Part shown: piece by piece, positions 4,095 through 63,068 of the stretch
Layout: each line of letters starts with the position of its first letter
Position numbering within the stretch: the first letter of the stretch is position 1
From: Nonlabens sp.
GTDB lineage: Bacteria; Bacteroidota; Bacteroidia; Flavobacteriales; Flavobacteriaceae
NCBI RefSeq assembly: GCF_965660805.1
Contig: NZ_CBFIBE010000003.1
Span: 37,030-101,029, forward strand
DNA length: 64,000 bases
Direction: 5' to 3'
Notes under the pieces: model-generated
What the model saw: only the letters and a program-made list of their open reading frames with translations
Database searches by the model: none
What the model was told of the DNA's origin: nothing
Position numbers and translations under genes: made by a program

Positions 4095-4544
4095 ATGACC
4101 ACATTAAAAGCAGGAGATCAAGCACCAGATTTTTCAGTAGTGAATCAAGATGGAAATGCCGTGTCTCTAGCCGATTTTAAAGGCAAAAAGTTAGTTTTAT
4201 TTTTCTATCCTAAAGCAAGTACTCCTGGCTGCACGGCCGAGGCTTGTAACCTGAGAGATAATGTAGATCGCTTTCGCGAAAGCGGATACGAGATTCTAGG
4301 TGCTAGTGCAGATAGTCCTAAAAGACAATTGAATTTTAAAAACAAGTATGAATTACCTTATGACCTGCTCGCTGATGAAGATCACAGGTTATTAAATGCT
4401 TATAAAGTTTGGGGTCCTAAGAAGTTTATGGGTAAAGAGTATGATGGTATTCATAGAACTACTTTTGTGATCGATGAAAATGGTGTTATTACTGATGTGA
4501 TTACTAAGGTAAAAACCAAAGATCATACTGCTCAAATTCTATAA
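4095..4544 (+). CDS. bcp: Thioredoxin-dependent thiol peroxidase (BCP/PrxQ)
   Basis: FFYPKASTPGCTAEAC, RTTFVIDENG. Confidence 0.95.
   Translation: MTTLKAGDQAPDFSVVNQDGNAVSLADFKGKKLVLFFYPKASTPGCTAEACNLRDNVDRFRESGYEILGASADSPKRQLNFKNKYELPYDLLADEDHRLLNAYKVWGPKKFMGKEYDGIHRTTFVIDENGVITDVITKVKTKDHTAQIL
4269..4284. repeat. 16-bp palindrome copy 2, perfect, in bcp, read as RFRES
   Basis: ...DNVD-RFRES-GYEILG... Confidence 0.97.
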
Positions 4545-4563
4545 AAGAGCAATTTATGAGATT

Positions 4564-4596
4564 AAAAAAGACCGCTATTATTGCGGTCTTTTTTTT
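4564..4596. terminator. Bidirectional intrinsic terminator
   Basis: AAAAAAGACCGC-tattatt-GCGGTCTTTTTTTT between convergent genes. Confidence 0.8.
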
Positions 4597-4617
4597 ATGC
4601 TTGATGAGCTTATTAAA

Positions 4618-6925: not shown

Positions 6926-6926
6926 T

Positions 6927-7418
6927 ATGAAACGTAACCTTTATTTATATTTATTCATTTTTGCTTCGTTAATAGCCTTAATCCTGTATGTAAATGCAAG
7001 AAAGATCCAGGAGTCACAAGATGCTGCTTACATTCAACTGGAAGATAAACTTAAAGCAGCCGAAGAAAAATTACAAGAAACTAACACGTTAGGTAGTTCT
7101 ACCAGTTTATTTACTTTAAAAAATAACGAAGAGGCTTATGACTATTTTGCAGCTAGTGGTCTAGATAGAGATCGTGTTGAGGCTTTGCTTATGGATTATC
7201 TTCTAGAAAAAAACCTTGTTAAAGGTGGAAATCCTTTAGTGGAATATATAGGAGAAGGTAGAGGTTATCAAATTAATGATATGCAGGTACTTAATCATAA
7301 GTGGTTAATCGCAAATTTTGCCGATGGAGAAAACTGGGGAGAAGTGCTAATTCAATATAATTTTAATGAAAATAATGAATTATCTATGGAGACTCTAAAG
7401 TCATTACTGTATAATTAG
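6927..7418 (+). CDS. Hypothetical protein with N-terminal membrane anchor and short coiled coil
   Basis: ORF track; hydrophobic residues about 5-23; begins 1 bp after the upstream stop. Confidence 0.75.
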   Translation: MKRNLYLYLFIFASLIALILYVNARKIQESQDAAYIQLEDKLKAAEEKLQETNTLGSSTSLFTLKNNEEAYDYFAASGLDRDRVEALLMDYLLEKNLVKGGNPLVEYIGEGRGYQINDMQVLNHKWLIANFADGENWGEVLIQYNFNENNELSMETLKSLLYN

Positions 7419-8089
7419 TTAGAGTTTTTTTCCAGCCAGGCTTTCATATCATAAAAATTATCCCTAGCCACGCCGTGACCTATAGGATAATCTTTAAAAA
7501 CATAATCGAGTTCTAGGTTTTTTAAGATGTCTGGAGCAAGTTTAGCCCATGCATAGGGTACTACTTGATCTACGGTCCCGTGTGAAATGAAATAGGATGG
7601 TTTTGTTACGCTTTCGCGAAAGCGTGCTTCTAACTCCTCCCGATTATAAATCATTTCTTCATTTAAATAACCACTCATACACACTACTTTATCAAATAAT
7701 TGTGGATAGGATAGACTTAATCCATATGATAAGATAGCTCCTTGACTAAAGCCTAGAATATTAATTTGCTCTTGAGAAATAGAGTAACTGTTTTTAAGTT
7801 CTTCTATAAATTTGAGAAGTAATGTCATGCTCTGTTTTGCTTGATTCACATCACTGAATTTACCGCCAGTAGCGTCAAAGTTAATCGCATACCATGCTGC
7901 TCCATAAGGAGGTAAATCATATGGAGCACGTGCAGAAACGATAAAGAATTCTTGTGATAATTCTGGTGTAAAAGAGAATAAATCCTCCTCATTACTGCCA
8001 TAACCATGAAGTAATAGGAGTAATGGAGCGTTTTCTTTAAGTGCAGGTCTTATAACATGCTTAAGGGATAGATCTGAACGAGCTTTCAT
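7415..8089 (-). CDS. Phospholipase/carboxylesterase, alpha/beta hydrolase
   Basis: LLLHGYGSNE, nucleophile GFSQG, HGTVDQVVP, GHGV. Confidence 0.92.
   Translation of the reverse strand: MKARSDLSLKHVIRPALKENAPLLLLLHGYGSNEEDLFSFTPELSQEFFIVSARAPYDLPPYGAAWYAINFDATGGKFSDVNQAKQSMTLLLKFIEELKNSYSISQEQINILGFSQGAILSYGLSLSYPQLFDKVVCMSGYLNEEMIYNREELEARFRESVTKPSYFISHGTVDQVVPYAWAKLAPDILKNLELDYVFKDYPIGHGVARDNFYDMKAWLEKNSN
7609..7624. repeat. 16-bp palindrome copy 3, perfect, in the esterase, read as RFRES
   Basis: ...ELEA-RFRES-VTKPSY... Confidence 0.97.
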
Positions 8090-12876: not shown

Positions 12877-13647
12877 TTACCCTAATTCTTTAAAAGCTCC
12901 TAAACCAAATAACGCAAAATCATATTTCACTGGATCGATGGGATCTAGTTTACGCAAAATAGTGTCTAGCTCAGTAACTGTTTTTGCATCATTCTGTTTG
13001 CGCTTGATCATTTTTAACTTGCGAGCTATAGTTCCAGTATGTACGTCAAGTGGAAGAGATAAGGCGCTCATAGGAATGGTATTCCAGATTCCAAAATCTA
13101 CACCAGCCTTATCATTGCGTACCATCCATCTTAAGTACATGTTGATTCTTTTGGCACTACTGTTTTTCATAGGGTCACTGACATGCTTTTGGGTACGTGG
13201 CATGTGTTCTATCTCAAAAAAGAGTTGTTTAAACATAGAGATAGCATGTTGAAGATGAGATGTTTCTTGATACGCTTTTGCAAAAGCGTGTTCTAAACCA
13301 CCATAACGCAGTTCTATATGTTTTAAAGAACGCATAAAGGTCTTGCAATCCTCATTATTAAAGGTACGATGCACAAAACCGTCAAATCGATCCAGGTCAG
13401 ACGCTGTATGATTCCTTATAAAATCTGCAGGTGCATGTTCCATTAATTCCATAAGTTTATGGGAATTATTAATAATGGATTTACGGTTTCCCCATGCTAT
13501 AGTAGCTACTAGAAAGCCCGCGATTTCTATATCTTTTTTATTTGTAAAAAGGTGCGGAATCTGAATAGGGTCATGAGGTATAAAGTCTGGAACGTTGTAT
13601 TGTTCCACTTTTGCATCAAGAAATTCTTTGAGCTGTGCCCTAGTCAT
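12877..13647 (-). CDS. TIGR02757/DUF2400 family protein
   Basis: [37 protein letters not shown]. Confidence 0.88.
13273..13288. repeat. 16-bp palindrome copy 4, two symmetric mismatches, still a perfect palindrome, read as AFAKA
   Basis: CGCTTTTGCAAAAGCG; protein ...[11 protein letters not shown]... Confidence 0.8.
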
Positions 13648-14355: not shown

Positions 14356-16812
14356 TTAAGTCTTAAACCATTGCGGTCCTTCATTAAAGTCTATAAAATA
14401 ATTAATGCGGATTGAGAAATTGTGCCTTACTGGTTGTTCAAAAAGAGTTCCTAAACTTTCTTCAAATCTTATCGTACCTTGATTATCAAAGTTGTTCATA
14501 CTATTGCGATAGAGTAGTGTCATTTCACTGCCAGGAGCAAAACGCCAGCGATAAGAGAGATCTAGATTCCATATATTAAAATTTGCATCAGGATTAAAAT
14601 CATCTTCTAATGTGTAATCACTATCAGCTACAGTTCCGTCTCTTTGTAGTTCTTTAAAATCCTTACTAAAGGTAGCTCTAGACCAGAAATTCCTAAAACT
14701 GATGCTTAAAGCATTGCGATTATTAAAGTTATAAGTTCCAGTAACTCTGTTTTCTACACTGTGAGTATCTCTTTCACTAAGGATAGAGGTAGTGTCATTA
14801 TTAGATAGAGTTACATAACTCATTCTATCATTGCTTTTTCTCCAATTGATACTGTGGATCAACAAGAACTGATCACTAAACCTATAACGCGGACTTATGC
14901 GATAATTATAATTATGTTCCTTTTCATTAAATCTCTTATATCTTCCAGCTCTAGCGTCAATAGCAAATCTTTTACGATAGTCACTTGAGATAAAGCCACC
15001 TGTAAAAAAGCCTGCACCATATCGCACAATAGCATCTTCAATACGAGATTCAAATTGATCTTTAAATTCAGTATTATAATTAATATCTAAACCAAATGCG
15101 AAACGCTCTTTTGTTATAAAAAACGGATTAAAACTTACTTCTGTACCCGTGTGAAAAGCAGGAGTAGCAGCTCTCCTATGTCTTACATTTAACCGGAGCT
15201 CATAACGATTAAAAATTCCTTGTTGTGTTAATTGTACATAATCTAGGTCAGCGACAAAGGTGTGACGGTTAGTTCTAAAATTGCGACCTAAATCATTAGG
15301 GTTGTAACCACGATCTACAAAAAAGTGACCCAAGCGTGGTCTCCATTTACCTGCGGTAACACGCCAGTCCAGCTCTGTCGCATAACCTGTTTCAGTTCCT
15401 GTAATTGTAAAACGGTTAGACATTTTTGCCTGAGCTCTTAAGTTCTGTGTTGCCCGTTTATTATTGTGATTTAAGGCCATAGCACTAACATTTGCATCTG
15501 TGAACGCTCCATTGCGCAGGACATTTGTATTTACCAGTGCTATAGAGCTGTTATTGCCATATTGTTGATCAAGTACGAGAACATTATAATTTGTAAGAGG
15601 TTCAGTAATTAGATTTCTTTTAGTTCCTGTATTATTATCTCTTATCACGGCTTCTGTTTTCTCAGTAATAGAATTAAGAAATCCTATTCCTAGGCCACTA
15701 TTTGTACGGCCTGTAATTTTTACAGCATTTAGTAATTGAGCACTAGAAGGGTTCTCTAGAATTTCCTCGCTTTCTAGTGTATCTATATCACTAGCGCCAG
15801 TAGGCGTTTGACCTATTCTTCTAGAGAAAAAAATATTACCTTTATTAAATAGGTCTACACCTTCAGTAAAAAAGGCTCGATTCTCTGCAAACAATTGTTC
15901 AAATGGGCCTAAATTTAAAACTACCTGATCAAAAGCTACCTGACCAAAATCAGGAATCAAGGTAGCATCTAGTGTAAAGGCATCACTTAAACCATATTTA
16001 ATATCTAGTCCTGCTGCAAAGTTTGTGGAGTTGTTTCCATCAAGTCTATCATGTATGGTAGTGAGATAAGGATATAAGTTTAATCTTAATGGCGGGTTTA
16101 TATCTTCAATACCAGTAAGTAAAGCGTCATACTGCGTGTTTACACCTTTTGTAATATCTATGTAGTTATAACTATATTCTTCATTTAAGTGACGTATTCT
16201 ACGGAACACTTGAAAGGACCAGTCTTGAACCTTCTTTTCAGGAAATCTTAATGTTCTATACGGAATGCGCATTTCCACATACCATCCTTTCTGATCAAAA
16301 CTTACTTCAGAAAGAAAAACGACATTAAAGGAAAAGTCCTGACGATTTCCTTCCACAACAGCGTCTCCTAAGGAATTACCAGCAGTTGCAAAAAAACGAG
16401 TCTGATTGATCTGGTTATTATAGGTATTAATATAAAGGCCAAAAAGGTCTGCTTGTGCATCTATGTCATCTCTTTGAGAGAACTGTCTTAAGACTTTTTC
16501 GGGTTCATTGTCATATAAATATGCAGCAACGTATATTGCATTATCATCATAAGCGATTTTAAACTCTGTAGGGTGTGTTTTTCTTTCAGCCTGACCATTT
16601 ATGGGTTCAGTCATAATAAAATCACCACCGGTAGGAATTTGATCCCAGATTTTTTCAAATGGTTTTCCATCTATTTGAGGCGGCGTGGAAATACGGGTTG
16701 CCTCATAAGATTTCCTCTTAATGATAGTTGTATCTTGTTGTATTGTCGTGGTATTCGCTTTCGCGAAAGCGTAACAACATAACATTATCAGTAAAATAGC
16801 AAGACGATTCAT
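14356..16812 (-). CDS. DUF5916 family outer-membrane protein (N-terminal CBM9/DOMON-like part plus beta-barrel)
   Basis: Signal peptide, PQIDGK..W, EMRIPYRTLRF, PDFGQV, ENRAFFTEG, FFSRRIG. Confidence 0.8.
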   Translation of the reverse strand: MNRLAILLIMLCCYAFAKANTTTIQQDTTIIKRKSYEATRISTPPQIDGKPFEKIWDQIPTGGDFIMTEPINGQAERKTHPTEFKIAYDDNAIYVAAYLYDNEPEKVLRQFSQRDDIDAQADLFGLYINTYNNQINQTRFFATAGNSLGDAVVEGNRQDFSFNVVFLSEVSFDQKGWYVEMRIPYRTLRFPEKKVQDWSFQVFRRIRHLNEEYSYNYIDITKGVNTQYDALLTGIEDINPPLRLNLYPYLTTIHDRLDGNNSTNFAAGLDIKYGLSDAFTLDATLIPDFGQVAFDQVVLNLGPFEQLFAENRAFFTEGVDLFNKGNIFFSRRIGQTPTGASDIDTLESEEILENPSSAQLLNAVKITGRTNSGLGIGFLNSITEKTEAVIRDNNTGTKRNLITEPLTNYNVLVLDQQYGNNSSIALVNTNVLRNGAFTDANVSAMALNHNNKRATQNLRAQAKMSNRFTITGTETGYATELDWRVTAGKWRPRLGHFFVDRGYNPNDLGRNFRTNRHTFVADLDYVQLTQQGIFNRYELRLNVRHRRAATPAFHTGTEVSFNPFFITKERFAFGLDINYNTEFKDQFESRIEDAIVRYGAGFFTGGFISSDYRKRFAIDARAGRYKRFNEKEHNYNYRISPRYRFSDQFLLIHSINWRKSNDRMSYVTLSNNDTTSILSERDTHSVENRVTGTYNFNNRNALSISFRNFWSRATFSKDFKELQRDGTVADSDYTLEDDFNPDANFNIWNLDLSYRWRFAPGSEMTLLYRNSMNNFDNQGTIRFEESLGTLFEQPVRHNFSIRINYFIDFNEGPQWFKT
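16756..16771. repeat. 16-bp palindrome copy 5, perfect, in the signal peptide, read as AFAKA
   Basis: MNRLAILLIMLCCY-AFAKA-NTTT. Confidence 0.97.
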
Positions 16813-18295: not shown

Positions 18296-18369
18296 GGTCG
18301 CGTAGCTCAGCTGGATAGAGCATCTGCCTTCTAAGCAGACGGTCACAGGTTCGAATCCTGTCGCGATCA
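18296..18369 (+). tRNA. tRNA-Arg(TCT); CCA not encoded
   Basis: Acceptor GGTCGCG/CGCGATC, anticodon arm TCTGC-CTTCTAA-GCAGA, T-loop TTCGAAT. Confidence 0.97.
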
Positions 18370-20454: not shown

Positions 20455-20470
20455 CGCTTTCGCGAAAGCG
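20455..20470. repeat. 16-bp palindrome copy 6, perfect, intergenic
   Basis: CGCTTTCGCGAAAGCG upstream of the DUF937 gene. Confidence 0.97.
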
Positions 20471-21763: not shown

Positions 21764-21779
21764 CGCTTTCGCGAAAGCG
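21764..21779. repeat. 16-bp palindrome copy 7, perfect, intergenic
   Basis: CGCTTTCGCGAAAGCG upstream of the sigma factor gene. Confidence 0.97.
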
Positions 21780-28087: not shown

Positions 28088-29383
28088 ATGAAGAAGCCAG
28101 TTCTTATCATTGCTTATTACTGGCCGCCAGCAGGTGGACCTGGTGTGCAACGATGGTTAAAATTTGCTACTTATTTACCGCAGCACGGCTTTGAGGTGAC
28201 CGTTGTAGTTCCAGAAAACCCAGATTATCCTGTAATTGATGAATCACTCCTAGAACAAGTTCCTGAAGATGTTTCTATCATTAAGGTGCCTATAAATGAA
28301 CCTAGTAGATGGTCTAGTGCGCTTTCGCGAAAGCGAACTAAAAATCTTCAAAAAGGAATACTGCCTAAAAATGCAGGTATGTTACAACGCGCCATGATAT
28401 GGATGCGCGGTAACTTATTTGTTCCTGATGCACGAGTAGGATGGAAGTCTCGAGTTTTAAAAGCTATACATCCCTATTTGCTAGAGCATAAAAATCCTAC
28501 TGTAATAACCACAGGACCACCGCATTCTATTCATTTAATAGGCTTAGAATTAAAGAAAAAATACAAGGGTTTTAAGTGGCTTGCAGATTTTAGAGACCCG
28601 TGGACTACTATAGGTTATCATAAACATTTGAAAATAGGAGCTAGTGCTCAAAAAAAGCACGAGCGTTTAGAACAAGAGGTTTTAGATCATGCAGATTTAA
28701 TAATCGTTACTAGTCCACATACAGGAAAGGAGTTTGCTAGCAAGACTACAACACCTCTTCAGGTTATTACAAATGGGTATGATATTGAAGCGGCACAAAC
28801 TACCCGTCAACCAGATAGTGTTTTTACACTGGCTCATGTAGGAACCTTATTATCAGATCGTGATCCGGTTATTTTATGGGAATGTCTATCTGAGCTTTGT
28901 AAGGAAAGGGAAGATTTTAATACAGATTTTAAATTACAACTGGCCGGTAGCATAAGTGATGAAGTCATTGCCTCTATAAAAAAATCTGGATTAGAAAATA
29001 AGTCAGAATTGCTAGGTTATGTAGATCATCAACAAGCTGTTGAGCTCATGTTTAAGGCGCAATGCTTATTACTCATAGAGGTAGATAGTAAAGATACACA
29101 GGCCATTATACCAGGAAAGATTTTTGAATATCTCGCCAGCCGCAGACCTATTATAGCCATAGGACCTTCTCAGGCAGATATCGAGCAATTCATCAAGCAT
29201 ACTCATTCTGGTCACTATTTTAATTATCAAGAAAAAATAGCTCTTAAAAAACACATTCTTGAAAAATATGAGCTTTTTAAAAATAGCAATAATGAAGGGA
29301 ACAGTCACCCGAGTATCTCAAGTTATAAGAGAGAATTATTAACAGGAACACTTGCTAAAACCATTGCCTACACATGGGAATAG
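28088..29383 (+). CDS. Glycosyltransferase family 4 (GT-B)
   Basis: YYWPPAGGPGVQRW, TTGPPHS, DFRDPW, PGKIFEYLA. Confidence 0.88.
   Translation: MKKPVLIIAYYWPPAGGPGVQRWLKFATYLPQHGFEVTVVVPENPDYPVIDESLLEQVPEDVSIIKVPINEPSRWSSALSRKRTKNLQKGILPKNAGMLQRAMIWMRGNLFVPDARVGWKSRVLKAIHPYLLEHKNPTVITTGPPHSIHLIGLELKKKYKGFKWLADFRDPWTTIGYHKHLKIGASAQKKHERLEQEVLDHADLIIVTSPHTGKEFASKTTTPLQVITNGYDIEAAQTTRQPDSVFTLAHVGTLLSDRDPVILWECLSELCKEREDFNTDFKLQLAGSISDEVIASIKKSGLENKSELLGYVDHQQAVELMFKAQCLLLIEVDSKDTQAIIPGKIFEYLASRRPIIAIGPSQADIEQFIKHTHSGHYFNYQEKIALKKHILEKYELFKNSNNEGNSHPSISSYKRELLTGTLAKTIAYTWE
28320..28335. repeat. 16-bp palindrome copy 8, perfect, in the GT4 gene, read as LSRKR
   Basis: ...WSSA-LSRKR-TKNL... Confidence 0.97.
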
Positions 29384-30825
29384 TGATCAAACAATCGGGA
29401 TGGAATATAGGTGTTACTGTACTGGGTTTCATATTTGGTGCAGTTAATACGGTTTTACTAGGGCCTACTTTCCTGGGCGATGACTATTTTGGGTTAATGG
29501 GCTATGTGCTTTCGGCAGCGTTTTTATTCTTTCCTTTAATGAGTTTTGGGATTAATAACACGCTGGTTAAGTTTTACTCTAAGTATGATGATAAAAATGA
29601 ACGTGATGCCTTTTTAACACAAATGTTATTGTGGCCACTTATCATTATTATTCCGGCTTTTTTAATCATTTATGCTTTTTATGACCCCATTAGATTGTAC
29701 ATAGCAAATACGAATGAGATTACGAGAGACTTTGTGTGGCACATAGCAATCATCGCTGTTTTTCAAGCTTATTTTGAGATTTTTTATGCATGGACTAAGG
29801 TTCACATGAAAACCGTAGGAGGAAACTTTTTAAAAGAGGTATTCTACAGAGCAAGTTCTACAGTTATGTTGCTCCTGGTCATGATAGAAGTGATAACACC
29901 TGTTCAGTTTATACACAGTCTAGTTATTATTTATGCACTGCGTGTTTTTATCATGAAAATAGTAGCACTTAAAACTTATACACCGCGATGGCAACTGGGA
30001 AAAATAAAGGCAAGTGGTGACCTACTTCATTATTCTTTTTTAATGATCCTTGCCGGATCAGTAGGCACAGCATTGCTAGATCTTGATAAATTTATGATTA
30101 ACGATCTTATGATCATAGATAATATAGCATGGTATAATGTAGGTGTTTTTATAGCCACAGTTATAGCTGTTCCTGCACGCGGAATGGCTCAAATCATGCA
30201 TCCCTTAACAGCAGGGCATTTTAATAGAGGTGAAATGGTAGAGGTAGAGCGACTGTATAAACGCAGCTCACTCAATTTAAGTATTATAGCTGGTTTTTTA
30301 GTCTTGATCATCGTTTGTAATGTAAATGAGTTTTATGAACTCATGCGTCCAGAATATCGAGTAGGTGTTCCAGTGGTTATACTCATAGCTGTTGTAAAAT
30401 ATTCAGAAAGTCTTCTGGGTAGTAATAATGCTATTTTATATAATTCTGACTTGTATCGGGTAACACTCTGGTTAGGATTATTGCTCGCTGTTGTAGCGAT
30501 CCTTCTTAATATGTGGCTCATTCCTATATATGGTTTAATGGGCGCGGCTATTTCTACTTGTGTGGCTTATGTGATGTACGCTTTCGCGAAAGCGTACTAT
30601 GTGTATCATAAATTAAAAATCCATCCATGGACTTCACAAACGACACTGTCGGTAGGTTTAATTCTGATTTTTATAGTGGTGTTTTATTTTTGGGATTTTA
30701 ACTGGCATCCAGTAGTTAACATAGCGCTTAAAAGCTTGATTCTCTCGCTTACTTATTTATATGTGGTAAGAAATCTAAGGCTCTCAAAAGAGATCAACAC
30801 TTTGCTTAAAAAGTATCTCCCATAA
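29374..30825 (+). CDS. Polysaccharide/oligosaccharide flippase, Wzx/MOP family
   Basis: About 12-14 TM helices, DKFMI, IP.YG.MGAA.ST. Confidence 0.85.
   Translation: MGIVIKQSGWNIGVTVLGFIFGAVNTVLLGPTFLGDDYFGLMGYVLSAAFLFFPLMSFGINNTLVKFYSKYDDKNERDAFLTQMLLWPLIIIIPAFLIIYAFYDPIRLYIANTNEITRDFVWHIAIIAVFQAYFEIFYAWTKVHMKTVGGNFLKEVFYRASSTVMLLLVMIEVITPVQFIHSLVIIYALRVFIMKIVALKTYTPRWQLGKIKASGDLLHYSFLMILAGSVGTALLDLDKFMINDLMIIDNIAWYNVGVFIATVIAVPARGMAQIMHPLTAGHFNRGEMVEVERLYKRSSLNLSIIAGFLVLIIVCNVNEFYELMRPEYRVGVPVVILIAVVKYSESLLGSNNAILYNSDLYRVTLWLGLLLAVVAILLNMWLIPIYGLMGAAISTCVAYVMYAFAKAYYVYHKLKIHPWTSQTTLSVGLILIFIVVFYFWDFNWHPVVNIALKSLILSLTYLYVVRNLRLSKEINTLLKKYLP
30579..30594. repeat. 16-bp palindrome copy 9, perfect, extends to 22 bp, in the flippase, read as AFAKA
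   Basis: GTA-CGCTTTCGCGAAAGCG-TAC; ...VMY-AFAKA-YYV... Confidence 0.97.
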
Positions 30826-35121: not shown

Positions 35122-35137
35122 AGCTTTCGCGAAATCG
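35122..35137. repeat. 16-bp palindrome copy 10, two mismatches, intergenic
   Basis: AGCTTTCGCGAAATCG. Confidence 0.8.
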
Positions 35138-36638: not shown

Positions 36639-36655
36639 CAGTAATAAACAAAGTT

Positions 36656-38026
36656 ATGGCACAAAAACCTTCTATACCTAAAGGAACTAGAGATTTCAGT
36701 CCTGTTGAAGTACAGCGACGTCAGTTTATAATGAATACTATCAAGCATCATTTTGAGCACTATGGTTTCATGCCTATAGAAACACCTAGCTTTGAAAACA
36801 GCGATACCTTATTAGGAAAATATGGAGAAGAAGGCGACCGATTAATTTTTAAGATATTGAATAATGGTCAGTACTTAAAAAAAGTAAATGAGACAGACTT
36901 AGGTGCTAAAAATGAGTCTAAAGTATCTCCTCAAATCAGTAAAAGAGCCTTGCGTTATGACTTAACAGTACCATTTGCTCGTTATGTAGTACAACACCAG
37001 AATGATATTACTTTCCCTTTTAAGCGTTATCAGATTCAGCCGGTATGGAGAGCAGACCGACCGCAGCATGGACGTTTTCAAGAATTCTATCAGTGCGATG
37101 CAGATGTGGTGGGAAGTGATTCCCTATTACAAGAAGTAGAGCTGGTAAAGTTATATGATGCTGTTTTTACAGATTTAAAATTAGAAAATTGTACTATAAA
37201 AATTAATAATAGAAAGATTCTTGCTGGTATAGCTCAAATGATAGGAGCACAAGATCAGCTTATAGACTTTACGGTAGCACTTGATAAACTGGATAAAATA
37301 GGAGTCGATAAGGTAAAGGAAGAAATGATCCTAAAAGGAATCAGTCCTATTGCTATAGAAAAACTCAATCCTGTTTTTAGTCTTCAAGGCGACTTTACTG
37401 AAAAACTAGAGGTTATGAAAGACTTACTTTCTGATTCTGAAATAGGGCAGAAGGGAATCCAGGAGTTAACCTTTATTAATAATGCTATCAAGAAACTAGG
37501 CTTAAAGAGCGCTTTATTAGACTTAGATATCACACTTGCTCGTGGCTTAAATTATTACACAGGATGTATTTTTGAGGTTGCAGCACCAGCAGGAGTAAAG
37601 ATGGGAAGTATAGGTGGCGGTGGTCGTTATGATGACCTGACCAGCATGTTTGGTTTAAAAGCTGTAAGTGGAGTAGGAATCAGTTTTGGACTTGATCGCA
37701 TTTATCTTGTCATTGAAGAATTAGGTTTGTTTCCAGATTCTGTAAGAGCAGGAGTAGATGTGCTGTTTGTTAATTTTGGTGATAAAGAGAGTGAATATGC
37801 GATGGATTTGGTATTTCGCTTTCGCGAAAGCGGAATAAAATCTGAACTCTACCCAGAACAGGTAAAGACTCAAAAGCAAATGAAATATGCAGACCGAAAT
37901 GAAATACCTTATGTTATTTTAATAGGTGAGGATGAAATGAAACTCGGGTCTATTTTACTTAAAAATATGGTGAGTGGTGAACAAGAACTGCTTAAACCAG
38001 AAGAAGTAATTACACGATTAAAATAA
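36656..38026 (+). CDS. hisS: Histidine--tRNA ligase
   Basis: PKGTRDF, LRYDLTVPFAR, GRFQEFYQCDAD, ARGLNYYTG, GGGRYD. Confidence 0.98.
   Translation: MAQKPSIPKGTRDFSPVEVQRRQFIMNTIKHHFEHYGFMPIETPSFENSDTLLGKYGEEGDRLIFKILNNGQYLKKVNETDLGAKNESKVSPQISKRALRYDLTVPFARYVVQHQNDITFPFKRYQIQPVWRADRPQHGRFQEFYQCDADVVGSDSLLQEVELVKLYDAVFTDLKLENCTIKINNRKILAGIAQMIGAQDQLIDFTVALDKLDKIGVDKVKEEMILKGISPIAIEKLNPVFSLQGDFTEKLEVMKDLLSDSEIGQKGIQELTFINNAIKKLGLKSALLDLDITLARGLNYYTGCIFEVAAPAGVKMGSIGGGGRYDDLTSMFGLKAVSGVGISFGLDRIYLVIEELGLFPDSVRAGVDVLFVNFGDKESEYAMDLVFRFRESGIKSELYPEQVKTQKQMKYADRNEIPYVILIGEDEMKLGSILLKNMVSGEQELLKPEEVITRLK
37817..37832. repeat. 16-bp palindrome copy 11, perfect, in hisS, read as RFRES
   Basis: ...MDLVF-RFRES-GIKSELYP... 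in the anticodon-binding domain. Confidence 0.97.
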
Positions 38027-42896: not shown

Positions 42897-44775
42897 TCCA
42901 TGTATATTTTTGATTAGGCATTAATCTCACTAGTCCACGGTCTAGTAAATCTTTAAGAGTATTAATGACTTGTGATTGTTCCTTTTCAGGATGTAAAGAT
43001 GCAATTTCCTTAACGCTTAAGTCTGAATCCTGTAGTGCATTTTTTATTATTAAACTTAAGTTTCCTCTCTTTGTTGTTTTATTGCAATGTGTACATTTCC
43101 CGCAAGGATTAGATTCCTCTCCAAAGTATTTTAAAATCAGCACGTTAATACACTCTTCTTTTTGAGAGATAAGATCGCATATCAACTTGAGCTTCTCTTT
43201 TTTTACTTGATTTTGTTGTTTTAATGTTTTAGCAAAACGGTTGATTGTTCGATCATCATCACGCGGTTCGAGAAAAGTAATTTGAGTATCAGCATTAACG
43301 ATCTGTGCGTCTATAAGTTCCTTTTCTTCAAGGAATTTAAGAGTCTCCAGTACTTCGTTTTCTGTGGTATTACTGCGCAAAGCGATGATAGAACTATTAA
43401 TCTCTAAGTTTTGGTATGTACTACTGCCATAGGTGCGCAGTATAGATTGTATGATGGAGTTCATAGCAGGACGATTGTGTATGAACTCGAGAATTTTTTT
43501 TCCGCTTTCGCGAAAGCGTATACTTGATTTCCTGTGGTAATTTTGCGATAAGCTTATGATACTAAATCGGTCTAGCGTGAGTAGCACATTATAACAAAGA
43601 ACACCATTAATAGAGTAGGTGCTGGCAAAACTGGCAAAACTCAACTGATGGCTTGTGTTTTCTCCTTCACCCATTGCTATGCGTAAATAATTATTCAATT
43701 TACGGTACACATATTTAACTTGCTCAGTAGTGGCAAGAGATTTAATAAACTGATTTTGAGCATGTATAATATCGTTTATGTTATAGAAAAACTGAGCAAT
43801 ACTTTCTTTACCATCTCTACCAGCACGGCCTGTTTCTTGATAATAACTCTCTATACTGTCGGGCAGTTGTAAATGAGTAACTGTGCGCACATCAGGTTTA
43901 TCTATTCCCATACCAAATGCGTTTGTAGCTACCATCACCTGAGTATCATTTTCCATCCATGATTGAGCGGCTTTTACTTTAGTCTTGTGAGGTAAGCCTC
44001 CATGGTAAAAGTTAGAGGAAATACCATTTACCGTTAGTAACCTTGAATAGTTAACAGCATTCTTACGACTTCTTACATACGTGATTGAACTGCCTGTATG
44101 TTTTTTATAGAACTCTGTATAACTGCTGTTTTTATCTTCTGTATCTGTGATGTAATAGCTTATATTAGGTCTCAAATAACTGTTTTTAAAAACTTGATGA
44201 TTTACCAGCTCCAGATTTTCTATCATATCTTTTTGAACATCAAGTGTTGCAGTAGCAGTAACTGCAATTATAGGTGTAGCTTTATGAATTTTGCGTAGTA
44301 CTTTAATATCTCTGTATGCCGGTCTGAAATCATGTCCCCACTGGCTCACACAGTGTGCCTCATCTACAGCTATTAAGGACACCTTCATTCTAGCGATACG
44401 TTCTTGAACAAGACTTTGTTGTAGTCGTTCTGGACTTAGGTATAAGAATTGATACTGACCATAAATACAATTATCCAGTATATCATCGAGTTCTTGATAA
44501 GTGATACCACCAGTGATGCCTGTTGCTTTTATTCCTTTAGATTTTAAAGTGTTTACTTGATCTTTTATAAGCGCAACTAGTGGAGAAACAACAACGCAAA
44601 TTCCTTCTCGTACTAAACCTGGAATTTGATAACACAAGGATTTACCACCACCTGTAGGTAATAGAGCAAGAACATCATTACCTTCTATAACAGCATCTAT
44701 AATGGCTTCTTGCTGCGGTCTAAACGCGTTATAGCCAAAGGTGTTTTGTAATATATGTTTTGCTCCTGGATTCAA
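42889..44775 (-). CDS. recQ: RecQ family ATP-dependent DNA helicase
   Basis: PTGGGKSLCYQ, DEAHCVSQWGHDFRP, ATNAFGMGIDK, YYQETGRAGRDG, C-terminal Zn-binding cysteines. Confidence 0.92.
   Translation of the reverse strand: MNPGAKHILQNTFGYNAFRPQQEAIIDAVIEGNDVLALLPTGGGKSLCYQIPGLVREGICVVVSPLVALIKDQVNTLKSKGIKATGITGGITYQELDDILDNCIYGQYQFLYLSPERLQQSLVQERIARMKVSLIAVDEAHCVSQWGHDFRPAYRDIKVLRKIHKATPIIAVTATATLDVQKDMIENLELVNHQVFKNSYLRPNISYYITDTEDKNSSYTEFYKKHTGSSITYVRSRKNAVNYSRLLTVNGISSNFYHGGLPHKTKVKAAQSWMENDTQVMVATNAFGMGIDKPDVRTVTHLQLPDSIESYYQETGRAGRDGKESIAQFFYNINDIIHAQNQFIKSLATTEQVKYVYRKLNNYLRIAMGEGENTSHQLSFASFASTYSINGVLCYNVLLTLDRFSIISLSQNYHRKSSIRFRESGKKILEFIHNRPAMNSIIQSILRTYGSSTYQNLEINSSIIALRSNTTENEVLETLKFLEEKELIDAQIVNADTQITFLEPRDDDRTINRFAKTLKQQNQVKKEKLKLICDLISQKEECINVLILKYFGEESNPCGKCTHCNKTTKRGNLSLIIKNALQDSDLSVKEIASLHPEKEQSQVINTLKDLLDRGLVRLMPNQKYTWNE
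43503..43518. repeat. 16-bp palindrome copy 12, perfect, in recQ, read as RFRES
   Basis: ...RKSSI-RFRES-GKKIL... Confidence 0.97.
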
Positions 44776-48054: not shown

Positions 48055-48097
48055 GGTTTAATTACGCTTTCGCATAAGCATAATTAAACCTTTTTTT
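48055..48097 (+). terminator. murA terminator hairpin containing a degenerate palindrome copy
   Basis: GGTTTAATTACGCTT-tcgcat-AAGCATAATTAAACC followed by T7. Confidence 0.7.
48065..48080. repeat. 16-bp palindrome copy 13, three mismatches, intergenic
   Basis: CGCTTTCGCATAAGCA. Confidence 0.6.
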
Positions 48098-49617: not shown

Positions 49618-50589
49618 GTGAAAATCACAAACTATATGGAAGTACAAGAATTAATTATTGCACGCTTTCGCGAAAGCGTTTCTCACACGAACTCCTTCAT
49701 CCAGTACTTTGCAGATGTTCTAGATCTGAGTTACGATGCCGCTTATCGTAGGATTCAAGGAAAAGCTAAACTAGAAATACATGAAGCCATGAAGCTTGCT
49801 AGATTAGGTGAGTTTTCTCTAGATCATATTATGACTGCGCATCAAGACCTAACGGCGCTAGGTACTGCCACTAAGAAGATTCATTCTATGGAATCACTTG
49901 AGTTCTATTTTAAGGAAATGGAAAATAACCTTAAAGCTGCTGGCAAGAAAGGAGTAGAGTGGATTTATAGCGCTAAGGATATTCCTGTTTTTCATCATTT
50001 TAATGATACGCATTTAGCTCGTTTTAAGATTTATGTCTGGATGCAATTACTGGATGATTCTATGGAAGGAAAACGTTTTTCAGATTTTCACTTGCCGCTG
50101 TCCATGAAAGAACAAATTAAAAAGAATAAGGCACTTTTTGAACAGTATAATAGGGTGGAGATCTGGAATGATACGACTATCTCTAGTAGTTTACAGCAAA
50201 TTCATTTTTATCATGAGGCTGGTTATATAGATCAAGATATGGCTGTTATTTTATGTGAGGATTTAAGGAGTCTTCTTAAAAAAACCGCTGCAGATTTGCT
50301 TACAACCTCATATAATATTTATTACCACGAGCTCTTATTAATGAGTAATAACGCTATCGTTAAAAAAAATGGAAAGGCTATTGCTGGTTTTGTAACCATG
50401 ACTTTGCTAGGTTATATAAGATTTAGTGGTAGTAATATTTTAAACCGAATGGATGATTTTTTCAAGTATCAAATAAGGCAAGCCACATCTATAAAAGATT
50501 GCTCTTTAAAAGAACGCTCCATATTTTTTAATAAAATGGAACAAAAAATTAACGCTCTAGAAAAATCTCTAGAGCGTTTTAGTCTGTAA
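49618..50589 (+). CDS. Hypothetical protein with an N-terminal HTH-like domain
   Basis: FADVLDLSYDAAYRRIQGK resembles an XRE/BetR-type HTH. Start may be ATG 49636. Confidence 0.7.
   Translation: MKITNYMEVQELIIARFRESVSHTNSFIQYFADVLDLSYDAAYRRIQGKAKLEIHEAMKLARLGEFSLDHIMTAHQDLTALGTATKKIHSMESLEFYFKEMENNLKAAGKKGVEWIYSAKDIPVFHHFNDTHLARFKIYVWMQLLDDSMEGKRFSDFHLPLSMKEQIKKNKALFEQYNRVEIWNDTTISSSLQQIHFYHEAGYIDQDMAVILCEDLRSLLKKTAADLLTTSYNIYYHELLLMSNNAIVKKNGKAIAGFVTMTLLGYIRFSGSNILNRMDDFFKYQIRQATSIKDCSLKERSIFFNKMEQKINALEKSLERFSL
49663..49678. repeat. 16-bp palindrome copy 14, perfect, read as RFRES
   Basis: ...LIIA-RFRES-VSHT... Confidence 0.97.
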
Positions 50590-52128: not shown

Positions 52129-52144
52129 AGCTTTCGCGAAAGCG
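52129..52144. repeat. 16-bp palindrome copy 15, one mismatch, intergenic
   Basis: AGCTTTCGCGAAAGCG, 8 nt upstream of the aroB ATG. Confidence 0.92.
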
Positions 52145-57103: not shown

Positions 57104-58339
57104 TTGTTCCTTTTGAATCTACAGAACAAACATAAAATATTAAACGATCCCATTTATGGTTTTATTACCATTCCTAATGAGGACTTATTTACAATTATAG
57201 AACATCCATACTTTCAGAGGTTGCGGCGTGTTACACAAATGGGCTTGAGTTATCTAGTATATCCTGGAGCACATCATACCAGATTTCACCACGCACTAGG
57301 TTGTTTGCATTTAATGCAAAAAGCAGTACAAGTACTTCGTTCTAAGAATGTTGACATCTCTTATGAAGAAGAAGATGCTCTTTATAAAGCTATTCTATTA
57401 CATGATATAGGTCATGGACCTTTTTCTCATGCTATGGAGCATAGTATCATTAATAATGTAAGTCACGAGGATATTTCTATCCTTTTTATGGAATCTTTGA
57501 ATAAGGAGTTTAACGGTAGTTTAACGCTTGCAATTCAAATTTTCAAAGGAGCATATCACCGACCTTTTATGATGCAATTGATCTCAAGCCAGCTGGATAT
57601 GGATCGATTAGATTACTTGAAACGAGATAGTTTTTATACAGGTGTTGCAGAAGGGAACATTAATAGCCAGCGATTAATCGCTATGCTTAATGTTAAAAAT
57701 GATGAACTCGTTATCGAGGAAAAAGGGATTTACTCTGTAGAGCATTTTCTAAGCAGCCGCAGGCTCATGTATTGGCAAGTCTATTTGCACAAAACAGGTA
57801 TAGGTGCTGAGCATTTACTACAATCTGTTTTTGTACGCATTAAGGAGCTTATAGGTAAAGGGATAGAAGTGGATTTACCATCAGACTTAAAATATTTTTT
57901 AACACATGGTATTACTTTAGCTCATTTTACTCAAGAAAACTTAAACAGATTTGCTAGGTTAGATGACACTGACTTAATCACCACGCTTAAATTAGGATCA
58001 CAGCATGAGGACTTTGTGTTACAGGAACTATGTAATATGATTTTAAATAGGCAATTACTTAAAATCAAATTTTCAAAAGAGCCTATCAGTGATAAAAAAC
58101 TTCAGAAAAAAAAGCATCAATTAATAAAAGCGAGGAGTTTATCTGATCATGAAGCGCAATATTTTGTGTTCTCTGGAGCTGTTCATAATCTCGCTTACGC
58201 GAAAGCGAAACCTATAAAAATATTATTAAAAAATGGTAAACTTGTAGAACTCATAAAGGCTGGCGAGGAAGCAAGTTTTAAGGCACTGACCAAAAAGGTG
58301 ACAAAATATTACTATTGCTATCCAAAGATTCAGGATTAA
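57104..58339 (+). CDS. HD-domain phosphohydrolase, dNTP triphosphohydrolase-like
   Basis: DPIYG, FQRLRR, YPGAHHTRFHH, LLHDIGHGPFSH, D.DRLDYL.RD, MYWQVY.HK. Start is TTG 57104 or 57113. Confidence 0.9.
   Translation: MFLLNLQNKHKILNDPIYGFITIPNEDLFTIIEHPYFQRLRRVTQMGLSYLVYPGAHHTRFHHALGCLHLMQKAVQVLRSKNVDISYEEEDALYKAILLHDIGHGPFSHAMEHSIINNVSHEDISILFMESLNKEFNGSLTLAIQIFKGAYHRPFMMQLISSQLDMDRLDYLKRDSFYTGVAEGNINSQRLIAMLNVKNDELVIEEKGIYSVEHFLSSRRLMYWQVYLHKTGIGAEHLLQSVFVRIKELIGKGIEVDLPSDLKYFLTHGITLAHFTQENLNRFARLDDTDLITTLKLGSQHEDFVLQELCNMILNRQLLKIKFSKEPISDKKLQKKKHQLIKARSLSDHEAQYFVFSGAVHNLAYAKAKPIKILLKNGKLVELIKAGEEASFKALTKKVTKYYYCYPKIQD
57127..57134 (-). promoter_or_regulatory. Candidate -7 box of porX inside the HD coding sequence
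   Basis: TATGTTTG on the minus strand. Confidence 0.5.
58192..58207. repeat. 16-bp palindrome copy 16, one mismatch, in the HD gene, read as AYAKA
   Basis: CGCTTACGCGAAAGCG; ...HNL-AYAKA-KPI... Confidence 0.9.
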
Positions 58340-58349
58340 CTAAAATTAC

Positions 58350-58357
58350 TATTTTTG
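58350..58357 (+). promoter_or_regulatory. -7 promoter box of the lpx operon
   Basis: TATTTTTG 5 nt before ATG 58363. Confidence 0.65.
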
Positions 58358-58362
58358 CGAGA

Positions 58363-60783: not shown

Positions 60784-61568
60784 TGAATCAACCACTAGCA
60801 TACGTACATCCAGGAGCAAAAATCGCTAAGAATGTCGTTATAGAACCGTTTACAACCATCCATAATGATGTAATCATAGGTGAAGGAACCTGGATAGGTT
60901 CTAATGTCACGATTATGGAAGGTGCACGCATAGGGAAGAACGTGAGTATCTTTCCCGGTGCAGTAATAAGTGCAATTCCACAAGATAAAAAATTTGAAGA
61001 TGAGGATACAACTACCGTAATAGGTGATAACACAACTATTAGGGAATGTGTAACTATTAATAGAGGTACCTCTGATCGCATGAAAACTGTTATAGGTAAG
61101 AACTGTTGGATCATGGCTTACTGCCATATCGCACATGACTGTATAGTAGGTGATAATTGTATTTTTTCAAATAACAGCACACTTGCAGGTCACATTACAG
61201 TAGGTGATCATGTAGTACTAGCAGGAATGGCTGCGGTACAACAGTTTTGTCAAATAGGTAGTCACTCCTTTGTAACAGGAGGATCACTGGTTAGAAAAGA
61301 TGTTCCACCTTTTGTAAAAGCAGGACGTGAACCGTTAAGCTATGTAGGGATCAATTCTGTAGGATTAAGAAGAAGAGGTTTTGAATTAGAGAAAATAAGA
61401 GAAATTCAAGATATTTACAGAATACTTTATCAAAAAAATTATAACGTATCTCAAGCCGTTCAAATTATTGAAGCAGAAATGAGTGCGACTAATGAAAGGG
61501 ATGAAATTATAGAATTTATAAAAAACTCAAAACGAGGTATCATGAGAGGATACGTCGGTAGTAACTAA
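60783..61568 (+). CDS. lpxA: Acyl-ACP--UDP-N-acetylglucosamine O-acyltransferase
   Basis: Hexapeptide repeats, PQD.KF, IRECVTINRGT, HIAHDC, GINSVGLRRRG. Confidence 0.97.
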   Translation: MNQPLAYVHPGAKIAKNVVIEPFTTIHNDVIIGEGTWIGSNVTIMEGARIGKNVSIFPGAVISAIPQDKKFEDEDTTTVIGDNTTIRECVTINRGTSDRMKTVIGKNCWIMAYCHIAHDCIVGDNCIFSNNSTLAGHITVGDHVVLAGMAAVQQFCQIGSHSFVTGGSLVRKDVPPFVKAGREPLSYVGINSVGLRRRGFELEKIREIQDIYRILYQKNYNVSQAVQIIEAEMSATNERDEIIEFIKNSKRGIMRGYVGSN

Positions 61569-61574
61569 AATATT

Positions 61575-62141
61575 ATGGCAAGTACAAGCGACATTAGAAA
61601 AGGATTGTGTATAAGATACAATCATGACATTTATAAAATTGTTGAATTCTTACACGTTAAACCTGGTAAAGGTCCAGCATTTGTAAGAACTAAACTAAAA
61701 AGTGTCACAAACGGTAAGGTGATAGATAATACCTTCTCTGCAGGACATAAGATCGAGGATATACGTGTAGAAACACAATCATTCCAGTTCCTTTATCAAG
61801 ATCCAGAAGGTTATCATTTTATGAATACAGAGACCTACGAGCAAATCCTTTTGCAAGAAACTGTTCTTGATGCTCCAGGACTTTTAAAAGAAGGTGAAAT
61901 TGTTAAAATACAGATCAATACTGAGGACGACTCACCATTATCTGTAGACATGCCACAATATGTAGTACTAGAAGTTACTGCCACAGAGCCAGGACTTAAA
62001 GGAAATACAGCTACTAACGCGACTAAACCTGCAACTGTAGAAACAGGCGCACAGGTTAATGTGCCTTTATTTATTAATGAAGGCGATAAAATACGAATCG
62101 ATACAGAAAAAGGTGCTTATCACGAGCGCATGAAAGAGTAA
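61575..62141 (+). CDS. efp: Elongation factor P
   Basis: HVKPGKGPAFVRTKLK, PG.KGNTA, KPATVETG, VPLFI. Confidence 0.98.
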   Translation: MASTSDIRKGLCIRYNHDIYKIVEFLHVKPGKGPAFVRTKLKSVTNGKVIDNTFSAGHKIEDIRVETQSFQFLYQDPEGYHFMNTETYEQILLQETVLDAPGLLKEGEIVKIQINTEDDSPLSVDMPQYVVLEVTATEPGLKGNTATNATKPATVETGAQVNVPLFINEGDKIRIDTEKGAYHERMKE

Positions 62142-63068
62142 ATGAAATTCTCTCAAACACATCGTTTAAAAGATATTGCTGCGCTCATTAATTGTGAGTA
62201 TGTAGGCGATGATCTGTTTCCAGTGACCGGTATGAATGAAATCCATGTGGTAACACCTGGAGATATAGTGTTTGTAGATCATCCTAAGTATTATGATAAA
62301 GCATTACATAGTGATGCTACCGTTGTACTTATTAATAAAAAAGTAGAAGCACCGGCAGGGAAAGCACTACTCATATCAGATGATCCTTTTAGGGACTTTA
62401 ATAAATTAACCCAGCATTTTGCTCCTTTTCACGCTTTCGCGGAAGCGAATACAACACCACCACAAGTAGGTGAAGGAACCGTTGTGCAACCTAATGTATT
62501 TTTAGGGAATGATGTTGTGGTAGGATCAAATTGTGTGATCCATAGTAATGTGTCCATTAATGATAGGTGCATTTTAGGTGATAACGTCATTATACATTCT
62601 GGAACCGTTCTAGGAGCCGATGCTTTTTATTACAAACGTAGACCTGAAGGTTACGATAAGTTATTAAGTAATGGTCGCGTTGTTATTGAAGATCATGTAG
62701 AGATAGGTAGTTTATGTACCATAGATCGTGGCGTGAGTGGTGATACAACTATAGGTCATGGAAGTAAACTCGATAATCAAGTCCATATAGGACATGATAC
62801 CACTTTAGGAAAACATGTTCTTATTGCTAGTCAAACAGGAATTTCTGGCTGTGTCGTTATAGAAGACGAAGTGAAAATATGGGGACAGGTAGGAATACGT
62901 AGTGATGTACGACTAGGTAAAGGATGTGAAATTATGGCACAAAGTGGTGTCTCAAAAGATGTAAAACCAGGAGATGTACTCTTCGGTTCACCGGCTTCAA
63001 ATGCTAAAGAAAAGTTTAGAGAGCTTGCAGCTATAAGAATGTTACCTAACTTTATAAAAAATAAATAA
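62142..63068 (+). CDS. Second LpxD-family acyltransferase (paralogue)
   Basis: LpxD-like N-terminus, hexapeptide repeats, LGADAF, IDRG, LDNQVHIGHD. Confidence 0.85.
   Translation: MKFSQTHRLKDIAALINCEYVGDDLFPVTGMNEIHVVTPGDIVFVDHPKYYDKALHSDATVVLINKKVEAPAGKALLISDDPFRDFNKLTQHFAPFHAFAEANTTPPQVGEGTVVQPNVFLGNDVVVGSNCVIHSNVSINDRCILGDNVIIHSGTVLGADAFYYKRRPEGYDKLLSNGRVVIEDHVEIGSLCTIDRGVSGDTTIGHGSKLDNQVHIGHDTTLGKHVLIASQTGISGCVVIEDEVKIWGQVGIRSDVRLGKGCEIMAQSGVSKDVKPGDVLFGSPASNAKEKFRELAAIRMLPNFIKNK
62432..62447. repeat. 16-bp palindrome copy 17, one mismatch, in the LpxD paralogue, read as AFAEA
   Basis: CGCTTTCGCGGAAGCG; ...APFH-AFAEA-NTT... Confidence 0.9.

Follow-up and report, generated by a model that had tools for sequence, protein, structure and literature searches.

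A clade-specific 16-bp palindrome in Nonlabens, probably maintained as a genome-wide DNA signal

Introduction

Few lineages are known to have hyper-abundant genomic words that are maintained as DNA; the examples are Chi, the uptake sequences, and the highly iterated palindrome HIP1. The role of HIP1 is still debated after 30 years. HIP1 is conserved in open reading frames (ORFs) and periodic (PMC5861425), and it has been proposed as an uptake signal (bioRxiv 10.64898/2026.06.24.733823). Natural competence occurs in some Flavobacteriaceae, within which family it is known only for Riemerella (PMC7965970). Riemerella columbina prefers its own DNA, and the k-mer search performed there was limited to k-mers of <10 bp (the table lists 7 to 10 bp), because of which a 16-mer would have been missed (PMC7965970). 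Here, we analyze a palindromic word in 64,000 nucleotides of DNA from Nonlabens sp. (Flavobacteriaceae; RefSeq assembly GCF_965660805.1, contig NZ_CBFIBE010000003.1, positions 37,030 to 101,029, forward strand), a stretch referred to below as the window. The element is most likely neither a mobile insertion nor a protein motif. With a probability of roughly 0.62, it is a clade-specific, genome-wide DNA signal that selection maintains and that a dimeric DNA-binding factor would recognize, comparable to HIP1 and the uptake sequences. The avoidance between copies at short range with recurrence at 4 to 6 kb, the 3-fold intergenic enrichment, the all-or-none mismatch spectrum, and the carriage by phages at host density are new in this analysis.

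Results

The conserved unit is a 16-mer with degenerate arms

The window, with a GC content of 35%, contains 12 exact copies of the palindrome GCTTTCGCGAAAGC and three copies with one mismatch, where none is expected (100 dinucleotide-preserving shuffles). A preliminary description of this DNA, made from the sequence alone, had recognized this 14-mer, which is real; the conserved unit, however, is longer, with C at -1 in 11 of the 12 exact copies and G at +1 in all 12, giving the 16-mer palindrome CGCTTTCGCGAAAGCG. Six intergenic copies had also been left unlisted: four exact (14-mers at 2025, 20456, 21765, and 52130) and two degenerate (35123 and 48066). Together with two-mismatch copies at 13274 and 48066, the decayed copies in the window number five. 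The remaining eight exact copies lie in genes and use all three frames, none of which contains a stop codon within the motif, as direct reading of the sequence confirms. The genes and frames previously assigned to RFRES, to AFAKA and its variants, and to LSRKR all match, and the protein identities were right. The copies in the window are listed below (L numbers denote other loci).

2024..2039, exact 16-mer; intergenic, 43 nt upstream of the pyrophosphatase ATG (1982, minus strand), divergent from a VWA gene.
4269..4284, exact 16-mer in bcp (4095-4544, plus strand); reads RFRES; conserved in L246.
7609..7624, exact 16-mer in an Abhydrolase_2 esterase gene (7415-8089, minus strand); reads RFRES, in a loop 5 aa longer than in Flavobacterium.
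13274..13287, minus strand, decayed copy GCTTTTGCAAAAGC in a DUF2400/TIGR02757 gene; two CpG transitions; reads AFAKA; exact motif there in L246 and L247.
16756..16771, exact 16-mer in the signal peptide of a DUF5916 protein (gene 14356-16812, minus strand); reads AFAKA; position kept in a 34.5%-identical homolog (L195).
20455..20470, exact 16-mer; intergenic, between a DUF937 gene and an RpoD-like sigma factor gene.
21764..21779, exact 16-mer; intergenic, upstream of the RpoD-like sigma factor gene (20716-21579, minus strand).
28320..28335, exact 16-mer in a GT4 glycosyltransferase gene (28088-29383, plus strand); reads LSRKR.
30579..30594, exact 16-mer in a Polysacc_synt flippase gene (29374-30825, plus strand); 22-bp perfect palindrome GTACGCTTTCGCGAAAGCGTAC; reads AFAKA.
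35123..35136, one-mismatch copy GCTTTCGCGAAATC inside the remnant of a lost ogt/MGMT-like gene; exact motif within that gene in L001, L002, L004, and L005.
37817..37832, exact 16-mer in hisS (36605-38026, plus strand); reads RFRES.
43503..43518, exact 16-mer in a RecQ-family helicase gene (42889-44775, minus strand); reads RFRES; unchanged in L006, whose protein is 52% identical.
48066..48079, probable decayed copy GCTTTCGCATAAGC; intergenic; three mismatches at the 16-mer level.
49663..49678, exact 16-mer in the gene of an unannotated 323-aa protein (plus strand); RFRES at residues 10 to 14, counted from the likely ATG at 49637.
52129..52144, exact 14-mer with A for C at -1; intergenic, 10 nt upstream of the aroB ATG (52120, minus strand), divergent from a proline dehydrogenase gene.
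58193..58206, one-mismatch copy GCTTACGCGAAAGC in an HD phosphohydrolase gene (plus strand); reads AYAKA.
62433..62446, one-mismatch copy GCTTTCGCGGAAGC in the LpxD2 gene (plus strand); reads AFAEA, in a variable linker.

The surroundings of the motif were characterized in a pool of about 280 distinct copies from the window and from genome, metagenome, and viral loci, most of which were found through the motif itself. The 16-mer is flanked by degenerate, mirror-symmetric arms of ~13 to 20 bp, G/T-rich and C-poor on the 5' side and A/C-rich on the 3' side. The bias spans about -25 to -2, with peaks of 5' T at -3, -4, -7, -10, and -13 that the 3' arm mirrors, and beyond about 25 bp from the motif, sequence conservation is gone. 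The bias is strongest in noncoding copies and appears on both arms whatever the frame; therefore, codons do not account for it. As an internal control, 28 single motif hits in high-GC contigs, which represent chance matches in unrelated organisms, lack the bias.

The motif is constrained at the DNA level

Of 10 clade lineages (the window counted), 9 share an identical hisS copy, down to 66% protein identity; the site in Nonlabens ulvanivorans retains R-F-R, with five bases changed. Among the nine motif-bearing hisS genes (66 to 97% protein identity), 12 of the 234 amino-acid-invariant columns outside the motif are also codon invariant, compared with 5 of 5 inside. Because such a comparison of columns selects on the motif and is partly circular, a retention test was added, in which the chance of keeping CGC-TTT-CGC-GAA-AGC was estimated for each lineage given its own codon divergence from the window. 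Neutral retention amounts to 0.003 to 0.13 per lineage, and the motif was found to be exact in eight of nine lineages. The selection or drive at the DNA level that had been suspected for hisS is thereby supported, with the motif positions held while the rest of the gene diverged. In all four genes tested (hisS, GT4, flippase, and recQ), in a comparison that likewise selects on the motif, the longest run of nucleotides identical in all sequences is the motif itself.

The peptides follow the DNA. In the clade, the exact motif encodes 64 of 65 occurrences of RFRES, 87 of 96 of AFAKA, and 38 of 39 of LSRKR, and most of the others are one- to two-base variants. Conversely, 445,000 residues of motif-free relatives contain RFRES, AFAKA, and LSRKR 0, 2, and 0 times, respectively. 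The three peptides are by-products of the DNA motif, and these counts speak against the refuting condition set in the preliminary description, namely, that relatives lacking the DNA motif conserve the same peptides. The pooled coding copies are unevenly distributed among the frames (84 AFAKA, 71 RFRES, and 47 LSRKR; P = 0.005), but the preliminary suggestion that the frame tracks the protein context did not generalize to the pool: in 83 pooled copies, the residues flanking AFAKA show no more hydrophobicity than random positions do.

In clade orthologs of motif-bearing genes, the site is either exact or decayed by one to five bases and never an unrelated sequence; therefore, the sites are old and turnover is low. 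These orthology results refer to coding sites, blastn orthology for the intergenic sites having been discarded because the motif aligns to any other copy. Exact copies outnumber one-off variants by about 10:1, and 11 of 19 one-offs are CpG transitions. In one Nonlabens metagenome-assembled genome (L003; JALZUY010000313), four of the five coding copies are decayed by one to three bases (including those at 2964, 7485, and 16123 and at the GT4 site) and only that in hisS is exact, which looks as if constraint on the motif had recently been relaxed and the motif were being lost.

Copies in four genes trace to base substitution

The test for insertions and deletions rests on the four genes with motif-free orthologs, HisS, Bcp, RecQ, and GT4. 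For HisS, 70 motif-free Flavobacteriia loci align gap-free and read x-L-R-x-x-G where the carriers read R-F-R-E-S-G. Bcp is gap-free against three solved homologs in the PDB and against the DNA of Flavobacterium arcticum, whose site reads R-F-Q-E-K (CGT TTT CAG GAA AAG), a partial presite five substitutions from the motif. The gap-free alignments of these two proteins given in the preliminary description are thus borne out by real ones. Thirteen motif-free RecQ loci are likewise gap-free, with I-Q-I-I-I-G-N or a similar sequence in place of I-R-F-R-E-S-G; by our own count, about 12 of the 16 bases differ from the outgroup sequences, with the length unchanged. Three Kordia GT4 loci are gap-free as well, with F-S-K-K-K instead of L-S-R-K-R. 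Because the motif-free orthologs align without gaps, the copies in these four genes arose by base substitution in preexisting sequence, as the preliminary description had proposed. Its view that the site arises where the protein tolerates it proved too gentle, given the RecQ change from IQIIIGN to IRFRESG.

Beside its site, the HD protein shows a difference of one residue from a close solved homolog (2q14). Throughout the clade, the esterase loop exceeds that of Flavobacterium by 5 aa, the gap falling within a few residues of the motif at a place that varies with the aligner; in L246, whose genome bears the motif elsewhere, the loop is long but the site lacks it. The LpxD2 site is a variable linker, and one LpxD homolog has a 5-aa gap there.

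One clade, intergenic enrichment, and phages

Ten of 80 Flavobacteriia HisS loci, counting the window, carry the motif, and in a HisS neighbor-joining tree these carriers form an exclusive clade that consists of the Nonlabens loci and two higher-GC uncultured Flavobacteriaceae. The nearest Nonlabens HisS loci are 87 to 89% identical to the window HisS (one genome per species), which places the window in Nonlabens. By this tree, the motif arose once, in the ancestor of Nonlabens and some related Flavobacteriaceae. The esterase site reads RFRES in nine named Nonlabens taxa (eight species and strain Hel1_33_55) and RFRKS, an apparent decayed copy, in Nonlabens sp. Ci31. Two further syntenic genomes have 4 to 6 copies per 20 kb, and F. 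arcticum has none. In 226 kb of loci found via a gene and not via the motif, the density is one copy per 5.4 kb (about 190 per Mb), which extrapolates to several hundred copies per genome, and metagenome contigs show the motif in many different genomic contexts. Noncoding copies make up 28% of the total (72% are coding), compared with 9.5% of random positions in the same loci, so that intergenic DNA is enriched in the motif 3.0-fold per base (P = 6e-13).

A few viral contigs carry 3 to 6 copies each; among the phage contigs L087, L102, L119, and L122 (IMG/VR 3300036669_000050 and 3300040781_000495), there are, for example, 4 copies in 24 kb and 6 in 37 kb. Their genes include those for a baseplate hub, a tape-measure protein, and an integrase; therefore, they are temperate phages, with a motif density like that of the host. 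To date the gains, a search was made for relatives of these phage genes that lack the motif, and it returned only self matches.

Copies are evenly spaced and all-or-none

In the window, the gaps between copies are more even than under random placement (coefficient of variation, 0.42 to 0.53; P = 0.0003 to 0.025). In a censored gap analysis of independent loci, the hazard of encountering the next copy is 0.008/kb at distances below 0.5 kb and climbs to 0.31 to 0.38/kb at 4 to 6 kb, and 7 gaps are shorter than 1 kb, compared with about 31 expected at constant hazard. Copies avoid one another at short range and recur every 4 to 6 kb. No gene in the window has more than one copy, as was noted previously, but a single 1004-aa ORF in L212 has two exact copies (972 and 1696), 724 bp apart; therefore, one copy per gene is a consequence of the spacing and not a rule. 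Mismatches to the 16-mer follow an all-or-none pattern, with 11, 3, 2, and 1 sites at 0, 1, 2, and 3 mismatches, respectively, and chance levels thereafter. No excess of half-sites was seen in this spectrum, and outside the motif, TCGCGA and CGCG occur at the expected frequency.

Genes around the copies

The hisS ORF as listed (36605-36655 region) begins 17 codons upstream of the M-A-Q-K-P start that is conserved in all orthologs, and this extension is probably untranslated. In the RecQ-family helicase, the match to the zinc-binding domain spans residues 509 to 565, so that its distance from the helicase C domain is about 110 residues greater than expected, and the motif copy falls in this poorly conserved insert. 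The ogt/MGMT-like gene (minus strand), recognizable by its I-P-C-H active-site motif, is present in L001 to L005 (in L001, at about 8220-8520), and the window, at positions 34796 to 35288, keeps only a remnant of it. A response regulator with a PglZ domain adjoins a lipid A cluster (55532-57082 and 58315-63068) that comprises two LpxD paralogs, an LpxC-FabZ-type fusion, and LpxA; such a fusion is probably usual in the phylum Bacteroidota. Two degenerate motif copies, those in the HD gene and LpxD2, lie in or beside this cluster.

Discussion

A probable recognition site for a dimeric factor

The motif may best be viewed as a mark that would tag or organize the cell's own DNA. A dimeric, sequence-specific factor would recognize double-stranded DNA at the palindrome, as the strict dyad symmetry and a footprint of about 45 to 55 bp suggest, and selection or saturating drive would keep roughly one site per ~5-kb segment, as suggested by the even spacing and the conservation of sites. 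Two roles, self-DNA recognition in uptake or recombination and nucleoid organization, are put forward tentatively and on an equal footing; a methylation-linked role seems about half as likely as either, and other roles share the rest.

Several points weigh against a selectively maintained site. The spacing and conservation data fit selection and saturating drive alike and cannot separate them, and about 0.3 Mb of anchored loci, together with motif-ascertained contigs, form the basis from which the distribution over whole genomes is extrapolated. A full Pfam/NCBIfam pass for a candidate reader in the window returned only housekeeping genes and no methyltransferase, nuclease, or ParB-like gene, and the predicted reader is not encoded there; within the DNA sampled, no gene family recurs between the 17 close pairs of copies. 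The 32 bits that are invariant over hundreds of sites exceed what ordinary protein-DNA recognition usually imposes, and intermediates with three to five mismatches are absent, which fits poorly with gradual point mutation under graded binding selection. Finally, the uptake sequences known so far are asymmetric.

Alternative explanations

The alternative that survives best, to which we give perhaps one chance in four, is an uptake or self-recognition sequence under molecular drive alone: competent cells would prefer DNA with the motif, which would spread by recombination without benefit to the cell. The substitution origin, the use of all frames, the intergenic enrichment, the flank consensus, the even spacing, and the clade specificity all match descriptions of the uptake signal sequence (USS) and the DNA uptake sequence (DUS), and even spacing is a trait of the USS. 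The competence of some Flavobacteriaceae, the preference of R. columbina for its own DNA, and the fact that HIP1 is now proposed as an uptake signal point in the same direction. However, the known uptake sequences are asymmetric 9- to 12-mers at about 1 per kb with many one-offs, compared with a palindrome at 1 per 5.4 kb and an exact-to-one-off ratio of about 10:1 in the present case. Uptake sequences are usually sparse in recently acquired DNA; the temperate phage contigs have the motif at host density.

Less probable by a good deal, and in our judgment unlikely, is a by-product of methylation-linked repair bias (very-short-patch repair or a methyl-directed ratchet), with the sites themselves functionless; Elhai is said to have proposed such a bias for HIP1. 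The core does hold nested CpG-rich palindromes (CGCG and TCGCGA), and CpG transitions, which account for the majority of the one-offs listed above and for both changes at 13274, would fit cytosine methylation, although plain GC-to-AT pressure in a genome of 35% GC gives CpG transitions too. The motif is also present in prophage DNA, as a process blind to gene content predicts. Conversely, a bias that recognizes 16 bp plus arms would be without precedent, even spacing and short-range avoidance are not expected of a mutational process, and the sites are old and positionally conserved rather than continually replenished. Proto-sites and half-sites are absent, and the nested palindromes are at expected frequency elsewhere.

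Slightly less likely still is a mode of origin in which the palindrome is written by templated, length-neutral conversion instead of stepwise point mutation. A single-stranded DNA of ~50 nt, consisting of arm, core, and arm, might, for example, pair with loosely similar sequences and serve as the template by which at least 16 bases are replaced at once. Such conversion would explain the invariance of the core, the missing intermediates with three to five mismatches, sites such as that in RecQ, the faded arms, and the host-like density in phages; the arms do resemble a faded consensus that is clearest where protein constraint is absent. If true, it would be a new way to propagate a genomic signal.

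Insertion of a small mobile palindromic element into genes, of the type of the repetitive extragenic palindrome (REP), the miniature inverted-repeat transposable element (MITE), or the Rickettsia palindromic element (RPE), is largely refuted. The 5 extra aa near the motif in the esterase loop of the clade, the 5-aa gap at the site in one LpxD homolog, and an extended consensus that is clearest in noncoding copies would suit it. However, length is unchanged in all four genes with motif-free orthologs, the long esterase loop of L246 lacks the motif, conservation ends beyond about 25 bp, no transposase-like gene lies between copies in the DNA sampled, and 72% of the copies are coding.

Just as improbable is an RNA-level or single-strand hairpin element that would act as a stability, processing, or termination signal. 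Folding of the core can yield a 6-bp stem closed by a 4-nt loop, and in some copies the stem extends to 9 to 11 bp. Within one copy, the arms pair no better than in a shuffled-partner control, apart from weak excesses at +-2 (z = 4.6, noncoding copies) and +-4 (z = 4.4, coding copies), and 22-bp perfect palindromes are about 3.5-fold enriched among noncoding copies. Copies on one contig tend toward common outer bases, so this outer complementarity may reflect a lineage-specific preference. The core hairpin is weak (-4.3 kcal/mol; z of about -0.9), and any palindrome would fold equally well. Each strand of the 16-mer contains GCGAAAGC, an unusually stable DNA mini-hairpin sequence; standard nearest-neighbor folding of the 16-mer showed no special stability. 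Furthermore, the core is invariant, so that compensatory changes are absent, and the 3' flank is A/C-rich and not U-rich, which speaks against an intrinsic terminator. An Rfam scan of the window matched no motif copy to an RNA family; its only matches were two tRNA genes (18296-18369, plus strand, and 39309-39382, minus strand), neither of which overlaps a copy.

Selection on the encoded peptides, although these do recur, can be dismissed almost entirely, given that one DNA word yields three unrelated peptides, that 28% of the copies are noncoding, and that the peptides are almost never made from other codons and are absent or nearly so from motif-free relatives.

Other candidates were tried and rejected. 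A partner gene bracketed by copies, in the manner of REPs and REP-associated tyrosine transposases (RAYTs), was dropped, no recurrent family having been found among the 17 close pairs. A regulon was rejected because the genes beside intergenic copies (ppa, the rpoD-like gene, aroB, and a putA-like gene) are unrelated, and restriction-site logic was rejected on the expected frequency of TCGCGA and CGCG outside the motif. In the literature searched, the 14-mer appeared in no paper, and the combination of Nonlabens or Flavobacteria with palindromes gave nothing relevant. Leads for the 10-mer and the 8-mer turned out to be primers or engineered sites, and a lead to plasmid RA3 was an introduced mutation.

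Significance

The element is a second, independent, and much more information-rich hyper-abundant word, in another phylum, and one that overrode protein sequence in essential genes such as hisS. Its 16 invariant bases make every copy unambiguous, and its sparse, even spacing makes single sites editable. Together with the cultured Nonlabens isolates and with L003, which seems to be losing the motif, these properties make both the reader protein and the function directly testable; genes lost from L003 could point to the gene of the reader. In practice, the motif can also mark the clade in metagenomic binning and connect phages with their hosts. In annotation, recurrent RFRES, AFAKA, and LSRKR call for caution as DNA by-products.

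Comparison with known systems

RPEs, REPs together with bacterial interspersed mosaic elements (BIMEs), and MITEs share with the Nonlabens element the character of repeated palindromic DNA, and RPEs also occur within genes. These elements, however, are longer, imperfect, and add length, whereas the Nonlabens element is length neutral in the four tested genes; REPs are, in addition, extragenic and accompanied by a RAYT gene, whereas the Nonlabens copies bracket no partner gene. The preliminary placement of the motif with USS, DUS, and HIP1, apart from the inserted Rickettsia elements, agrees with its substitution origin and its constraint at the DNA level.

Closer in form are parS and the Noc-binding sites (NBS), which are perfect palindromes (16 and 14 bp, respectively), often lie in genes, are held at the DNA level, and have a similar TTTC...GAAA flavor. 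They are read by a dimeric helix-turn-helix protein; for the Nonlabens element, a dimeric factor is predicted. On the dyad, 3 of 8 half-site positions match the consensus, and parS and NBS number about 4 to 70 per genome and are regional, compared with an estimated several hundred, evenly spread Nonlabens copies.

Chi resembles the element in its frequency of about one per 5 kb (the Escherichia coli value), and the 5' flank of the Nonlabens element is G/T-rich, a composition favored by RecA. If the signal served to protect DNA as self, its presence in temperate phages would be understandable. Conversely, Chi sites are asymmetric 5- to 8-nt sequences, strand biased and read on single-stranded DNA, whereas the Nonlabens palindrome has no orientation.

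The USS of Pasteurellaceae and the DUS of Neisseriaceae are like the Nonlabens element in their substitution into genes, their intergenic enrichment, their weaker extended flank consensus, and their restriction to a lineage. They differ from it, a 16-bp palindrome, as asymmetric 9- to 12-mers that occur about once per kb, often as imperfect copies, and for which an uptake bias has been shown experimentally.

HIP1 (GCGATCGC, cyanobacteria) is the nearest parallel. It consists of 8 bp at 300 to 2,700 per Mb, whereas the Nonlabens element, found in Bacteroidota and unrelated to GCGATCGC, has 16 invariant bp plus arms at about 190 per Mb and is ~10-fold sparser. One-offs are common and conserved in HIP1 and rare in the Nonlabens element; the periodicity of HIP1 is 10 to 90 kb, and the spacing signal seen in the 64-kb window and the independent loci is short range, at about 5 kb; and HIP1 has cognate orphan methyltransferases for an internal subsite, whereas the window contains no methyltransferase. 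Both, however, are perfect palindromes that are vastly overrepresented and occur within ORFs, in all frames, as well as between them (PMC4390886, PMC5861425). Both are also conserved at orthologous positions beyond what coding requires, nonrandomly spaced, sometimes extended into the flanks, and confined to one lineage, with a function that in the case of HIP1 was long unknown (PMC4390886, PMC5861425).

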